From NCBI GenBank assembly GCA_046881945.1, contig JBKSMT010000074.1, positions 1-28,571 on the forward strand: 28,571 nt of DNA, read 5' to 3'. This DNA is from Clostridia bacterium. GTDB taxonomy: Bacteria > Bacillota > Clostridia > Christensenellales > UBA1242. Numbering within the stretch: the stretch's first letter is position 1; the number at the start of each line of letters is the position of its first letter. Below, one piece after another: positions 20,739-24,438 of the stretch. A model generated the notes under the pieces. The model was not told the origin of the DNA, did not search any database, and saw nothing but the letters and a program-made list of their open reading frames with translations. Made by a program: the position numbers and the translations under genes.

Positions 20739-21125
20739 TTATGAATTGTAGTCGTATGGAATTTTATTTTTCTTGTCGCCTTTTAAATTCATAATAAAAC
20801 CGTCTTTAACTTTACACCACCATTCTGGATTATTTCCAGGAAGCGATTCTAATAATTCTTCATCTGTAAAACCATTATCTTTTACCAATTCTAAATCCTT
20901 AATTTTAATTTCGCAAAAGATATCATCTTTAATTTCATTATAATGTATCCTAAACCAGTCATTATCATCTTTGTGTTTTTCAAAGTTTTCATCAATAAAA
21001 CATACTAAAAAGCAGTCCGACCTAATTTCAGGCATAACAATATATCCAATCATGCCCTTATACACTCCCTCTTTTTCATATTTTTCATTATCATTAATAA
21101 CTTTTACATCATCATATATTTTCAT
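20739..21125 (-). CDS. Putative immunity protein (DUF4926-like N-terminus)
   Basis: D.VKV.......GVYKGMIGYIV......FLVCF pattern; translationally coupled (TAATG) to the upstream toxin-like ORF. Confidence 0.5.
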   Translation of the reverse strand: MKIYDDVKVINDNEKYEKEGVYKGMIGYIVMPEIRSDCFLVCFIDENFEKHKDDNDWFRIHYNEIKDDIFCEIKIKDLELVKDNGFTDEELLESLPGNNPEWWCKVKDGFIMNLKGDKKNKIPYDYNS

Positions 21126-21739
21126 TAATCTCCTCCTGCAAATATAGTTGCTATTTTTAATTTTCCATTAGGATAAATAAATAATCCCGTTCTAAACTTA
21201 TGTATTATGTTTTTAAACTCATTTTTACCTGCAACTGAAATTGTGATATTTATTTGAAACCCATATTCCCAATGTTTATATAGAGAATAATTTCCACTTC
21301 TATAAGCATTTTTAACTTCATCTATATAAAAGTTAATTATCTCCTCTTCATCCTTATATGTATAACCTATACCATAGAAAATCCCCTTTTTTCTTTTGAA
21401 AAAATCATTAAATTTTGAACGAGCCTCTAAGACATTGATTTCTTTAAGTCTTGGTACATTAATCGATTTTTCTTCACAATGGCAAAAGAAATGATACAAG
21501 CCCTTATTGGGCACTAATTTATAATCGGAATAATCAAACTTTTTAGGTTTCTTTTCTTCTTCATTTTTAAACCAACAATGATTTACTGTTACACACTTCC
21601 AACAATGGTCGCCAACCCCATTTTTAGGCACTCCATTCGGGAAATTTTCTATTGTAAGTCCAGATTCATCATCATTAATTTTTATCCAGTCGCTAAAATA
21701 TACACTGAATTGGCTTTTGTACGCATCAAGCAATCCCAT
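21125..21739 (-). CDS. Putative MuF-like Cys/His domain fused to DUF6883-like toxin domain
   Basis: HCWKC ... LYHFFCHC resembles MuF C..C/HP.C.C; C-terminal YG..I.I...GKN...RT....NG...IAT resembles DUF6883; AGGAGG RBS. Confidence 0.5.
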   Translation of the reverse strand: MGLLDAYKSQFSVYFSDWIKINDDESGLTIENFPNGVPKNGVGDHCWKCVTVNHCWFKNEEEKKPKKFDYSDYKLVPNKGLYHFFCHCEEKSINVPRLKEINVLEARSKFNDFFKRKKGIFYGIGYTYKDEEEIINFYIDEVKNAYRSGNYSLYKHWEYGFQINITISVAGKNEFKNIIHKFRTGLFIYPNGKLKIATIFAGGD

Positions 21740-21871
21740 AAATTCCTCCTTGTTTTGAGATTTTATGGAATTATATCATACAAAAACTAAAAAACGAACA
21801 CCTAGTGCCATTTATTTAAGTATAACATATATTTATATAATTTACATTACTTTTCATAAAATTCTCTCAAT

Positions 21872-21895
21872 AAAAAAGAAGTGGGTGTCCCACTT
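21872..21895 (-). terminator. Terminator-like hairpin
   Basis: AAGTGGG-TGT-CCCACTT with minus-strand T6. Confidence 0.65.
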
Positions 21896-21903
21896 GCTTT
21901 AAA

Positions 21904-22019
21904 GATATGGGGAGTGATTCAAAATGTATCTCGGGGTGTGTTCAACTGAACCACCAAAACCTACCTATTTCATAGGGGTTTTTAGAGTTAAAATTTGAAT
22001 TTTGAATCCGCTCCTTATC
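21904..22019. other. Structured intergenic element (three-way junction)
   Basis: Outer stem GGAGTGATTCAAAAT/ATTTTGAATCCGCTCC enclosing two hairpins (21935-21955, 21956-21982). Confidence 0.45.
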
Positions 22020-22039
22020 CTGCTCCCTAAAATTCTATT

Positions 22040-22072
22040 AAAAAACACCCAAACTTTTACTATTTGAGTGTT
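22040..22072 (-). terminator. Terminator of 142-aa gene
   Basis: Minus strand AACACTCAAA / TTTGGGTGTT stem followed by T-run. Confidence 0.65.
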
Positions 22073-22077
22073 AATTT

Positions 22078-22506
22078 TTATTTTTCTAAAACGCTATCAT
22101 TCTCTTGCAAATAGTCAGCATTAATTCTATCTTCAATTGATTTAATAGTATCTAGATCCATATTAAAAGATAGTCGTTTGCGTATTAAGTAATCACACAA
22201 CTCTTCTTCTTTAACTGTTAATTTTTCAAGACTTTCTGGAATTATAACTTCATGTCCACCAGAACATTGATCAGCCTTATAATAAGGATTTCCAGTTAAA
22301 ATATGTTTATATGCAGTTGTAAATCCAATATATAATGGAACTTTAATAAATAATCCATAACGAGCATCATTATCATATTCCCAGGTGTGATTTGTTTGCA
22401 CTTTATAATCTTGACCTAGGAATCTCACATTGTTAACTTCTGAACTAACTTCTGATTGTTTTGCAATTTTACCAACGTATATTTTTCTAATATCTACTTT
22501 TTTCAT
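22078..22506 (-). CDS. Hypothetical protein (142 aa)
   Basis: AAGGAG RBS and downstream terminator; no family recognised. Confidence 0.7.
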   Translation of the reverse strand: MKKVDIRKIYVGKIAKQSEVSSEVNNVRFLGQDYKVQTNHTWEYDNDARYGLFIKVPLYIGFTTAYKHILTGNPYYKADQCSGGHEVIIPESLEKLTVKEEELCDYLIRKRLSFNMDLDTIKSIEDRINADYLQENDSVLEK

Positions 22507-22564
22507 TATGTCTCCTTATTTCAATTTAATATTATCATATTCTTAAAAACTTTTCAATACCAAT

Positions 22565-22682
22565 TCTAAAAATTTTCTAAAATTTGTCTAATGTTTTGTC
22601 TAAAATTTTCTAACAAATTTCATTAGACACGAAAAAAGTGTGATTTTTCTGTTAGAAATCGTGTTAGACATGATTTGTTAGT
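22565..22682. repeat. Helically phased TCTAA/TTAGA micro-repeat array
   Basis: TCTAA at 22565, 22576, 22587, 22599, 22609; inverted TTAGA at 22623, 22652, 22664; TTAGT at 22678. Confidence 0.7.
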
Positions 22683-22763
22683 GCTAAAAACCGTTGATGT
22701 AAATGTTAGTTTTATTTAAGTTTAAACTTGATAATATATTGTATAAATTATAAAAAGGAAAAG

Positions 22764-22790
22764 AAAAAAACCACCATATTTAGTGGTTTT
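22764..22790 (-). terminator. Terminator after the duplicated tRNA 3' end
   Basis: Minus strand AAAACCAC-TAAATATG-GTGGTTTT plus T-run. Confidence 0.7.
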
Positions 22791-22796
22791 AAGTTC

Positions 22797-22812
22797 TGGC
22801 GGAGAGTTAGGG
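22797..22812 (-). repeat. 16-bp duplication of the tRNA-Ser 3' end (att-like)
   Basis: TGGCGGAGAGTTAGGG identical to 22978-22993, includes CCA. Confidence 0.92.
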
Positions 22813-22925
22813 GCGACTGCGTTAGGAAAAGTTGCCCTTTGGCAAGTTTTTAGCACAAAGCGGGAGCAACTTGTTGCGGTCCGGGTCGACAGACCGAACC
22901 CTTTACGGGTCGAATCCCGTCCTAA

Positions 22926-22972
22926 AATAAAAAAATAAACCTAATCAAAACACACAGTGTTCGGATTAGGTT
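22926..22972 (-). terminator. Terminator of tRNA-Ser
   Basis: AACCTAATC (22938-22946) / GATTAGGTT (22964-22972) stem with minus-strand T-runs. Confidence 0.8.
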
Positions 22973-22977
22973 ATGCT

Positions 22978-23065
22978 TGGCGGAGAGTTAGGGATTCGAA
23001 CCCCAGGAAGCTCGCACTTCAACGGTTTTCAAGACCGCCGCTTTCGACCGCTCAGCCAACTCTCC
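22978..23065 (-). tRNA. tRNA-Ser (anticodon UGA), CCA encoded
   Basis: GGAGAGTTGGCTGAGCGGTCGAAAGCGGCGGTCTTGAAAACCGTTGAAGTGCGAGCTTCCTGGGGTTCGAATCCCTAACTCTCCGCCA; long variable arm, canonical T-loop. Confidence 0.97.
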
Positions 23066-23103
23066 ACACAATATTAAGTTGTGTTGATTTTTACAACATA
23101 TTT

Positions 23104-23132
23104 ATTATATCTAATTTATTTGTTAGTGTCAA
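23104..23132 (-). promoter_or_regulatory. Consensus sigmaA promoter of tRNA-Ser
   Basis: TTGACA-17-TATAAT exact. Confidence 0.9.
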
Positions 23133-23162
23133 GTACTTTTTAAAATATTTTTTACCAAATTT

Positions 23163-23192
23163 AAAAAAGATAGAATTTTTATATCTATCTTT
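23163..23192 (-). terminator. Terminator after spoIVB
   Basis: AAAGATAGA / TCTATCTTT stem with minus-strand T-run. Confidence 0.7.
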
Positions 23193-23220
23193 ATATACTA
23201 ATCATGTCTATTAAACATTA

Positions 23221-24438
23221 TTAATTATCATACATCCAGTCTACGTAAACGCCGAAGCCTTTAGTTGGATCATTGATAAATACGTGAGTTACTGCACCTA
23301 CAAGTTTGTTGTTTTGAATAATTGGGCAACCACTCATACCTTGAATAATTCCGCCCGTTTTTTCAATTAATTCTTTATCAGTTACTCTAAATACAATACT
23401 CTTATCATCAGCATTATCTTGATGATTTGTTTTAATTATTTTAATATCATAAGCCTTAACACCCTCATCATCAAGGCAAGCATAAATTTGCGCCTTGCCA
23501 GGTTTAATACTCATACGTCCGCCCAAACAATAATCATCAATAAGATTAAGTTTATTTACATTTAATATATTGCCATAAACTCCATATTTACAGTTAGTAT
23601 CTGCCACACCAATGCTATCATCTGATATCTTCATACTGCTACGAATTTCGCCAGGCGAATTTTTGCTCCCCTTTTTAATACCAAGCAAATTACACAAATA
23701 CACTTCGCCTTGCGATACTTTATAATCATCACCTAGTGTTGCGTCAGTAAGCGAATGTCCTACTGCTCCAAAGCGGTTATTATCCTTTTTTACATAAGTA
23801 AGCGTTCCAACTCCGCTAGTACTATTCTTAACCCATAGCCCCAACTTGTATTTTTGCGTAAAAATATCTAACGCTGGTGTAATACTGCACTTAAATTCTT
23901 CATCATCTCTACTAACAACAATCTCCACATCTTTGCCAGCATGCTCAACACTGTTTAAAACCTCGTCAATATCATAAATAGACGTAATCTCATGTCCTTC
24001 AATCGCCTTGATACTGTCCCCTTCTTTTAGTCCAGACGCCACAATCGGTTCGCGACTGCCTTCACGTGTAAACACTGCATTTGAGCCAACAATTACAACA
24101 CCTTCGGTATTTAAACTAAACCCTACAATATTGCCACCGACATACACTTCAGGTGAATTAATCAACTTAACTTTAACCTTTTTAAGCGGTAAAAATCCAA
24201 ACAATTTAATGCGCATAGTAGTAGCAGTTACTTCTTCACCATTAACCGCCATAGTGTCAGCAAGATTAAACTTAATAAATGGTGCAAAATCACTACTCTC
24301 ATTTGCAAAAGCAATGTCATCAGTGGTTACATACATATTATTAGGATAATCAATCGCATTATATATAGGTTGTACTACATAAAAATATCCCATTACAAAA
24401 AAAGATATGATAAATAAACCGAATACAACTTTCTTCAT
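23221..24438 (-). CDS. spoIVB: SpoIVB peptidase (S55, PDZ)
   Basis: GLWVKNSTSGVGTLT, AVGH, TGGIIQGMSGCPIIQ..KLVGAVTHVFINDP.KGFG. Confidence 0.93.
   Translation of the reverse strand: MKKVVFGLFIISFFVMGYFYVVQPIYNAIDYPNNMYVTTDDIAFANESSDFAPFIKFNLADTMAVNGEEVTATTMRIKLFGFLPLKKVKVKLINSPEVYVGGNIVGFSLNTEGVVIVGSNAVFTREGSREPIVASGLKEGDSIKAIEGHEITSIYDIDEVLNSVEHAGKDVEIVVSRDDEEFKCSITPALDIFTQKYKLGLWVKNSTSGVGTLTYVKKDNNRFGAVGHSLTDATLGDDYKVSQGEVYLCNLLGIKKGSKNSPGEIRSSMKISDDSIGVADTNCKYGVYGNILNVNKLNLIDDYCLGGRMSIKPGKAQIYACLDDEGVKAYDIKIIKTNHQDNADDKSIVFRVTDKELIEKTGGIIQGMSGCPIIQNNKLVGAVTHVFINDPTKGFGVYVDWMYDN

Follow-up and report, generated by a model that had tools for sequence, protein, structure and literature searches.

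What is a second copy of the 3′ end of a tRNA gene doing behind the intact gene in so small a genome? The question is raised by a 28,571-nucleotide (nt) stretch of DNA (contig JBKSMT010000074.1, assembly GCA_046881945.1; hereafter the window) from a Clostridia bacterium of the order Christensenellales, whose metagenome-assembled genome (MAG) measures 0.92 Mb and is 80% complete. An intact tRNA-Ser(UGA) gene lies on the minus strand at 22978-23065 (ARAGORN; 56.9 bits against the Rfam tRNA model), and its final 16 nt (tRNA nt 61-76, at 22978-22993) recur without a mismatch at 22797-22812, a spacing of 181 bp. The original prediction, made from the sequence of the window, saw here a minimal tRNA-targeting element or a tRNA mimic. 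We consider it probable, if by no means certain, that positions 22797-22977 represent a single copy of an insertion element that occupies the loops of tRNA genes in many copies, has no open reading frame (ORF) and depends on its structure. Its core sits in the loop of a non-functional partial tRNA copy, and directly upstream the intact tRNA is retained together with a terminator. Full-text searching of the literature returned no description of this family of tiny, protein-less, folded inserts, which is apparently previously undescribed.

The unit behind tRNA-Ser and its family

Read in the direction of the tRNA, the locus runs from tRNA-Ser through a terminator (T1), an inverted arm, a short turn, a direct T-loop piece (L′), a core and the distal copy of the 16-nt repeat (R) to another terminator (T2), all on the minus strand. 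T1 (22926-22977) is the present terminator of the window tRNA-Ser and consists of a hairpin at 22938-22972, the arms of which (22938-22953 and 22957-22972) are 88% complementary, and a T-run; T2 (22757-22790, called by the terminator scan at 22767-22790), also a hairpin with a T-run, is the native tRNA-Ser terminator with its flank. The exact duplication and the separate terminator behind each 16-nt copy had both been predicted, and with up to three mismatches allowed the 16-mer has two copies in the window against 0.07 expected by chance. The predicted inverted T-arm copy is also present: the arm (22907-22925) repeats the tRNA-Ser T-arm and the first bases of R in reverse complement, is made up of TTAGG, ACG, GGATTCGA and CCC in that order, departs from the tRNA by a 3-nt insertion and a 1-nt deletion, and pairs over 12 nt (22907-22918 with 22991-23002) at 92% complementarity. 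Imperfect terminal inverted repeats had been described as well, and a 5-bp end pairing, TTAGG/CCTAA, is present. The turn, GTAAA (22902-22906; 5 nt here), leads from the arm to L′, GGGTTCG (22895-22901), which is a direct copy of tRNA nt 51-57, that is, of the 5′ strand of the T-stem and the first half of the T-loop. An 82-nt conserved core (22813-22894) then replaces T-loop nt 58-60, and R (22797-22812) resumes the tRNA with the 3′ strands of the T-stem and the acceptor stem and CCA. The core is 55% G+C as against 33% for the window, in agreement with the GC-rich centre originally noted, and is the only match in the window to R1, a covariance model that we built from 21 copies (88.6 bits, E = 6e-18). 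An Rfam scan of 22500-23300 at E≤10 returned the tRNA as its sole match.

The core comprises three hairpin units, P3, P4 and a P5 enclosed by P6. P3 (GTC-TGTC-GAC, 22885-22894), a 3-bp stem with a TGTC loop, opens at the 5′ border of the core; P4 with a GGA/TCC extension occupies 22863-22882; and P6 (22853-22861 paired to 22813-22820), which encloses P5 (about 22827-22851), closes exactly at the 3′ border. The structure is supported because of the comparison across the family and not because of the window copy, whose single-sequence fold is no better than that of shuffled sequences (z −1.08 and −0.96). When 79 copies, 73 of them distinct, were aligned to the model, covariation was found on P4 with its extension, on P5 and on P6: paired cells amounted to 86.7% (70.9% in shuffles) and double-change cells to 267 (70 in shuffles), and the covariation score of 0.379 (0.109 in shuffles) was reached by none of 500 shuffles and compares with at most 0.074 in slid controls. 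P6 covaries although it lies outside the search model, with one of its pairs occurring as UA 26 times, CG 21, GC 15 and AU 3, and the first pair of P3 is found in four Watson-Crick types. An RNAalifold analysis of the first MAFFT alignment, in which P3 was misaligned, had given P4 and a doubtful stem only and was superseded by the model-based alignment with manually assigned pairs. With four strongly covarying helices, we regard the fold as real on comparative grounds. Two of the hairpins originally proposed, TTGCC..GGCAA (22832-22845) and GCAA..TTGC (22866-22877), are accordingly part of it and covary, but the proposed GGTC..GACC pairing does not covary and gives way to GTC/GAC around the TGTC loop at 22885-22894. 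The P5 hairpin at 22832-22845, together with its flanking A-run and T-run, also scores as terminator-like on both strands, inside the covarying P6.

A BLAST comparison of the window locus with related genomes found the GC-rich stretch at many other places. In a genus set of 64 genomes (labelled Candidatus Onthoplasma or uncultured Clostridia/Christensenella, order Christensenellales), R1 identified the core in 44, with about 115 copies, one to seven per genome, and a core length of 82-85 nt. The source genome holds a second copy at the start of a contig (C28:47-129), with flanks like those of the tRNA-Arg(ACG)-type copies of its relatives. Two sister genera have seven and three R1 matches, and weaker P4-P6-like modules occur in other families of the order. 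In a complete 2.6-Mb genome of the same order (G177:C1; L230-L233), a P4-P6-like module is one of several short repeat modules that make up intergenic mosaics of 150-700 bp, which lie away from tRNAs and have no accompanying repeated ORF. Our first GTDB-wide pattern was too loose, with 27 true matches among 80 loci scanned; all 27 are in gut Clostridia/Christensenellales MAGs and have the same layout, as do 11 metagenome contigs from gut Clostridia. Elsewhere, a pattern scan of IMG/VR gave 10 chance matches, none of which fits the covariance model; blastn against the INPHARED phages gave no core match; the PLSDB plasmids and E. coli genomes, tyrT repeats included, gave no match; and Rfam at gathering thresholds, run over six other copies, found tRNAs only.

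Placement at tRNA genes and probable movement between them

Of 80 distinct copies, 39 lie 45-90 nt 3′ of a co-oriented tRNA and 11 lie upstream of and antisense to one (tRNA-Lys UUU, tRNA-Leu AAG), while most of the others stand at the end of a contig or inside a tandem array. Copies adjoin at least 20 tRNA species. The recurrence of the core beside other tRNAs, which the original prediction suggested looking for, was thus found many times over, in each case with the 3′ end of the local tRNA in direct and its T-arm in inverted orientation. The usual layout is an intact tRNA, a terminator, nt ~53-69 inverted, a turn, nt ~53-57 direct, the core and nt 61-76 direct. According to the geometry of 47 co-oriented copies, L′ spans nt ~51/53-57 and ends at nt 57 in the great majority, R begins at nt 61 in 36 and usually runs for 16 nt, to CCA, and the arm corresponds, in reverse complement, to nt ~50/53 to 62/70 of the local tRNA, with a gap between arm and L′ of 0-3 nt in most copies. 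The arm can pair with L′ (nt 53-57) and R (nt 61-69), which leaves nt 58-60 unpaired opposite the core. Among about 100 tRNAs, the cognate tRNA is the top-scoring match for the arm in 17 of 39 copies, the median match score is 12 for cognate tRNAs as against 7.7 for the others, and cognate matching extends to tRNAs with the rarer TTCAAGT T-loop. To judge from their sequences, the inverted arm, the short L′ piece and the 16-nt R are derived from the target tRNA.

Besides the T-loop (57/61), insertions are seen in the anticodon loop and where the variable loop begins; two tRNA-Leu(UAA) copies have their anticodon-loop insertion near the canonical 37/38 intron site, and in the tRNA-Tyr and tRNA-Leu(CAA) copies the insertion point is near nt 65-67. 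The antisense copies follow the same logic on the other strand, their duplication beginning in the anticodon or variable region and reaching past the 5′ end of the tRNA into the promoter flank. R frequently extends into a copied local terminator or promoter, to a total of 45-70 nt, and units occur in tandem arrays with no island between them.

Related arrangements were seen beside the main family. A second family, F2, stands behind tRNA-Gly(UCC) and tRNA-Leu(UAG) (L246 and L043 in G074:C2, L250 in G070:C60, L055 in G012:C40); it has the scaffold of the main family (terminator, inverted T-arm, repeat of nt 61-76) but no direct L′, and its cargo is a long, inverted P6/P5-like hairpin with two further small hairpins behind it. 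A few copies (L042 in G022:C9, L054 in G019:C6, L067 in G070:C17) have no adjoining tRNA or Rfam RNA gene. The motif GCTGATTTGC is common to the upstream flanks of these copies and a CCCTTCAAA..TTTGTAGGG hairpin, which is also found near other copies, to their downstream flanks; the two may represent a further repeat family or a further type of target.

Core identities speak both to the age of the copies and to their movement. The typical identity is 0.72 between copies in different genomes at different targets, 0.75 within one genome at different targets and 0.80 in different genomes at the same target. Because these values are low, most copies would be old and inherited in place, with no general homogenisation, and the low identities within genomes speak against concerted evolution as the only source of near-identical cores. 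Nonetheless, cores that are 93-98% identical do occur at different tRNAs, and their flanks always match the local tRNA. A co-oriented copy at tRNA-Arg(UCU) and an antisense copy at tRNA-Leu(AAG) have cores that are 98% identical, as do copies at tRNA-Arg(ACG) and tRNA-Ser, and in one genome the cores at three tRNAs (the anticodon loop of Leu-UAA, Tyr and Gly-UCC) are 95-96% identical. Direct reading of the Arg(UCU) and Leu(AAG) copies shows similarity from the first base of P3 up to the final base of P6; arms, L′, R and spacer have nothing in common between the two copies and in each correspond to the local tRNA. Since similarity stays within the core borders, the unit of copying would be the core and the flanks would be made from the target, and we infer that the core has moved between tRNA targets. 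The minimal tRNA-targeting element of the original prediction is in this respect supported, except that its apparently mobile, conserved part is the 82-nt core at 22813-22894 and not the whole 181 bp.

Comparison of orthologous sites bears on how the window copy itself arrived. The tRNA-Ser site is empty in four congeners (G031:C56, G002:C9, G027:C11, G036:C21), which supplies the empty sites that the original prediction had thought worth looking for. In all four a T2-type flank follows directly after CCA, so the 181 bp of the window are extra, and T1, which is missing from these sites, belongs to the inserted block. A T1-like terminator does occur behind an island-end partial tRNA-Ser (anticodon arm to CCA) in G031:C79 and behind a complete tRNA-Ser in G007, and an equivalent island-end partial tRNA-Ser is carried by G002:C9 (L203, around 29.6 kb). 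Because T1 is foreign, the window block is more likely to have come in preassembled, through recombination within tRNA-Ser/R, than to stem from a fresh insertion. A filled site of a simpler kind is the second copy in G003:C35, an island-end partial tRNA-Ser orthologous to those in G031:C79 and G002:C9, in which an 81-nt core exactly replaces AAT (T-loop nt 58-60) with no arm and no duplication; this core is 99% identical to that of the window. A metagenome contig likewise has the core plainly inserted into a partial tRNA-Leu, at its anticodon loop.

The sites at tRNA-Ser have further features of their own. The partial tRNA-Ser with its terminator (T1-like in G031 and G003) adjoins a DUF378 gene at three loci (L207 in G031:C79, L203 in G002:C9 and L022:2930-3260) and is the end, derived from attP, of an element whose integration site is the anticodon loop of tRNA-Ser. 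In G003 (C35:19500-23700, L022; C41, L208), a large serine recombinase gene (Recombinase and Zn_ribbon_recom domains) ends directly at a CTCCGCCA remnant, before T1 and the unit, and the intact tRNA-Ser is on another contig, with a third kind of terminator; the locus looks like an island integrated into the 3′ end of tRNA-Ser. In the window, genes for a SpoIVB peptidase and TsaD lie upstream of tRNA-Ser, and three ORFs of 142, 204 and 128 aa downstream of the unit (20739-22506, minus strand) have no Pfam match. No recombinase domain was found among the neighbours of the window unit. The block after the tRNA may be accessory DNA, though no third copy of the 16-mer bounds it.

Origin of the unit and rival explanations

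The covariation means that a single-stranded fold is required, and we favour folding as single-stranded DNA during insertion over a conserved RNA product. One could envision that some trans-acting activity now and then places a copy of the core in an exposed loop of tRNA-gene DNA. A genome of about 1 Mb would need each of its tRNAs, and insertion into the sole gene for one would be lethal, so that the survivors would be of two forms: a plain form, with the core in a spare partial tRNA copy, and the standard form, in which the tRNA stays whole and retains its terminator or promoter. This standard form, which reads as the reverse complement of nt 53-69, two bases, nt 53-57, the core and nt 61-76, could represent the untouched and the insert-bearing strands of one site joined by a hairpin, an "insertion heteroduplex". 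It might originate by fold-back (snap-back synthesis or a hairpin-capped end) during insertion or repair. Alternatively, it might be a folded site like integron attC or the attP of CTX phage, in which the arm would pair with L′ and R, imitating a T-arm duplex from which the core branches out. This second option would account for the arrays and for the foreign T1, as a ready-made R-T1-arm-L′-core recombining at R, and taken alone it leaves retargeting to new tRNAs unaccounted for. Other routes fit less well: under rolling-circle priming from a nick in the T-loop the disrupted copy should come first, crossover at the inverted arm should leave the tRNA truncated, and a cassette circle of the integron kind suits the arrays and the foreign T1 but fails on retargeting to new tRNAs. 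More tentatively, and with more doubt than conviction, we raise the possibility of a new class, in which a folded nucleic acid of ~82 nt enters tRNA-gene loops (T, anticodon or variable, on either strand), an inverted and a direct copy of the site are built from the target, so that a hairpin-joined heteroduplex is left and the tRNA is spared, and F2, with its unrelated cargo, would be a product of the same mechanism. The enzyme might then be a housekeeping one, for example a single Xer-type recombinase or a replication or repair activity.

Several observations weigh against an insertion element of this kind. Within the 64 genomes, whose incompleteness as MAGs limits these negatives, as does the existence of unbinned plasmids and phages, the IS110 transposase (PF01548; positive controls included) and TnpB (PF07282) were each found in none, and the IS200-type TnpA (Y1_Tnp) was found in eight, uncorrelated with copies and absent from the copy-rich genomes, with none in G000, G003, G019, G022 or G062. 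Only one of the five copy-richest genomes has a reverse transcriptase (RVT_1). These five have one to three tyrosine and zero to two serine recombinases each, none of them within 5 kb of any copy, and G003:C35 is the sole case of a recombinase next to a copy; G062, with five copies, has a single XerS-like protein as its only tyrosine recombinase. The window arm is weakly specific, tRNA-Ser ranking 18 of 84 tRNAs. Most copies appear old and vertically inherited, and the case for mobility draws on a few near-identical pairs and on presence or absence, the latter of which could be mimicked by deletion between direct repeats. Neither a circular or excised form nor a transcript could be observed: no public run contains this strain, and the contigs from four runs covered only the tRNA-Ser of other organisms and fragments of related cores. 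Finally, the origin of the inverted arm is not covered by any demonstrated mechanism.

Two kinds of gene met in these searches deserve mention in their own right. An IS200-like element that encodes a Y1 transposase and measures about 710 bp is present in eight of the 64 genomes (loci in G008:C3, G035:C8, G083:C57 and G016:C36; L256-L259), is 98.6% identical between two species and, when compared with the core, has no similarity to it. A conserved tyrosine recombinase of 351-360 aa is encoded in G000:C72 (L254:1429-2490), with orthologues in G019, G009, G062, G067 and G129, and is present in each of the five copy-richest genomes; the G000 protein is XerS-like (181.9 bits, under the model cut-off). 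That G062 has no other tyrosine recombinase suggests a one-recombinase chromosome-dimer system in the genus. No dif-like site was evident.

A repeated tRNA 3′ end is the classic signature of integration, and the unit might be a simple attachment (att) scar, the leftover attR or attL arm of a deleted prophage or island at tRNA-Ser, with the core as a conserved attP arm. T1 matches the terminator found with the island-end partial tRNA-Ser in G031:C79 and G002:C9, the large serine recombinase gene of G003 ends at its CTCCGCCA remnant beside a copy, and tRNA-Ser is evidently a hot spot for integration. This reading, which we hold to be quite improbable, is largely refuted by the distribution of the core over many tRNAs: the same core is at 20 or more of them, in both orientations and in three kinds of loop, so that it is neither the unique sequence, unconnected with other tRNAs, nor generally the end of an integrase-bearing island that the original prediction had set against its own proposal. 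Arrays without an island between the units, the lack of a recombinase within 5 kb in the five richest genomes and four covarying helices, which would not be expected of a protein-binding duplex arm, likewise argue against a scar, and the clean insertion inside an island-end partial tRNA makes the core a passenger and not the arm. The copies might instead be immobile, ancient repeats akin to repetitive extragenic palindromes and bacterial interspersed mosaic elements, formed once per tRNA by local duplication and T-arm fold-back errors, persisting as neutral or structural DNA, with occasional gene conversion yielding the near-identical cores. That most copies are 65-85% alike, that same-target copies are the most similar and that the searches for a mover were negative all suit this view, as do the P4-P6 modules that the 2.6-Mb relative keeps in intergenic mosaics away from tRNAs. 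We give it little credence: the same 82-nt sequence could not have arisen independently at 20 or more sites without copying, the similarity of the directly read pair stops at the core borders, unlike conversion tracts between diverged flanks, the insertion polymorphism at an orthologous site is clean, and the window unit carries a foreign terminator.

The strength of the covariation, which implies selection on a single-stranded fold, could also be that of a functional small RNA gene, a tRNA-linked regulator, decoy or processing element whose read-through product pairs with its own tRNA or precursor. Three quarters of the placed copies are co-oriented just behind a tRNA with a consensus promoter (in the window a sigma-70-type TTGACA-17-TATAAT, 12/12 consensus, at 23104-23132 on the minus strand, 5′ of tRNA-Ser), and same-target copies are conserved across species. 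Such a gene nevertheless seems unlikely to us. The promoter and terminator scan of the window found no promoter within the unit, which is bracketed by two terminators; the core is absent from 20 of the 64 genomes and from many orthologous sites; and it has no Rfam match. By eye, a tmRNA (transfer-messenger RNA), the signal recognition particle RNA, domain V of a group II intron and a self-cleaving ribozyme were also dropped, with no model match and wrong lengths. The strand asymmetry of the helices, with 33 G-T (G-U) against 39 A-C combinations, shows no strand preference, and F2 holds a related hairpin inverted in the same scaffold. Above all, 11 of 51 placed copies, about a fifth, are antisense and upstream, with the transcribed strand and the sense of the tRNA piece reversed; RNA made there would have the opposite polarity, and the original idea of a tRNA mimic, or of a read-through RNA pairing with its own tRNA, is unsupported. 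A last and very improbable explanation is a guide-bearing, programmable element resembling bridge RNAs or omega RNAs, in which arm and R would guide a recombinase or nuclease to two target strands. Across the insertion point the arm is indeed antisense to the top strand, and R has the sense orientation and would pair with the bottom strand, which recalls the two-strand logic of the IS110 bridge RNA, and R, with its 16 nt at the 3′ end of a structured scaffold, is placed as in TnpB guide RNAs. The DEDD transposase of IS110 and TnpB are, as noted, both missing from the genus set, however; near-identical cores with wholly different flanks suit copying of the target better than guides mutating in concert; and R often runs into the duplicated terminator, up to 45-70 nt, as a duplication would.

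Significance and comparison with known systems

If our preferred reading of an ORF-less insertion element of tRNA-gene loops is right, this is bacterial mobile DNA outside the established classes, with no gene, no constant terminal repeats, a strongly conserved fold and flanks made from the target, and it thrives in genomes of about 1 Mb that are nearly stripped of other mobile elements. It raises the questions of which enzyme moves the core and whether the fold itself aims the core at tRNA loops; with 82 nt and exact junctions (after nt 57 and before nt 61), the core can be tested in vitro. The family also marks tRNA genes as sites of recurrent rearrangement. In practice, it breaks MAG assemblies at tRNA loci, as the many copies at contig ends attest, and its pseudo-tRNA fragments confuse annotation.

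Among known systems, the att duplications of integrating elements share a direct repeat that begins in a loop and extends to the tRNA 3′ end, preservation of the intact gene, the incoming terminator and tandem arrays at one site, and P4-type tyrosine integrases reportedly cross over in the T-loop or the anticodon loop of tRNA genes. Such duplications would be expected to involve one or a few target tRNAs per lineage, whereas here a single 82-nt sequence serves at least 20 tRNA species, in both orientations and at three kinds of loop, with no integrase inside or near the unit, an extra inverted copy of the target and RNA-like covariation. With integron attC sites and the attP(+) of CTX phage (integrative mobile elements exploiting Xer) the unit shares a reliance on structure over sequence, halves that pair into a target-like duplex with a bulge or branch, serial insertion at one point giving arrays, and a unit that would be contiguous if circular. 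It differs in that its target is a tRNA gene and not attI or dif, no IntI was found and the one recombinase that is universal is XerS-like, its arms vary from target to target, and the sequence-conserved core branch has no counterpart.

Comparison with small elements that lack genes is equally mixed. Palindrome-associated transposable elements are miniature derivatives of IS200/IS605 moved by the Y1 HUH transposase TnpA. Like them the core is small, has no ORF and has hairpins at both edges (P3 at the 5′ and P6 at the 3′ edge), and a single-stranded logic is plausible; unlike them it occurs where TnpA is missing, the eight genomes with TnpA including none that is copy-rich, and it shares nothing with the resident IS200-like element. 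To our knowledge, IS200/IS605 elements make no target duplication and none has an inverted copy of its target; the core-only insertion in G003 also shows no target duplication, but the standard form carries both direct and inverted target copies. Miniature inverted-repeat transposable elements would be expected to have family-constant terminal inverted repeats and a short duplication of fixed length. Here the arm and R are derived from the target and differ between copies, the core's own ends are, by eye in the near-identical pair, not complementary, and the repeat, which begins at nt 61, is 16 nt long when it stops at CCA and often reaches 45-70 nt. Retroelements (retrons, group II introns or relatives of short interspersed elements) are a poor match, with RVT_1 in just one of the five copy-rich genomes and no Rfam intron or retron match.

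Elements that work through RNA, or that sit at tRNA genes, provide the remaining parallels. IS110 and IS1111 reportedly encode bridge (seek) RNAs; the unit resembles these in its structured non-coding part and in having segments that match both target strands, but the 64 genomes hold no IS110 recombinase and the matched segments are much longer and copy-like. The 178-bp rtT repeats of E. coli tyrT are known from one locus only and are not known to have an inverted T-arm or to form a multi-tRNA family. They are similar in size to the present unit, stand behind a tRNA, are tied to a repeat of its 3′ end and form arrays, but the unit has no sequence similarity to E. coli genomes. In archaea of the Thermoproteales, tRNA introns are said to transpose, and they too place related short sequences at several loop positions (37/38, the T-loop and others) of many tRNA genes. 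There, however, the interrupted genes are functional and are spliced by the archaeal endonuclease, whereas here the gene stays intact and what is interrupted is a dead fragment next to it; we know of no bacteria with the archaeal tRNA splicing system. Each known class considered thus departs from the element in at least one defining respect, and att duplications and folded single-stranded sites are the closest to it in working logic.

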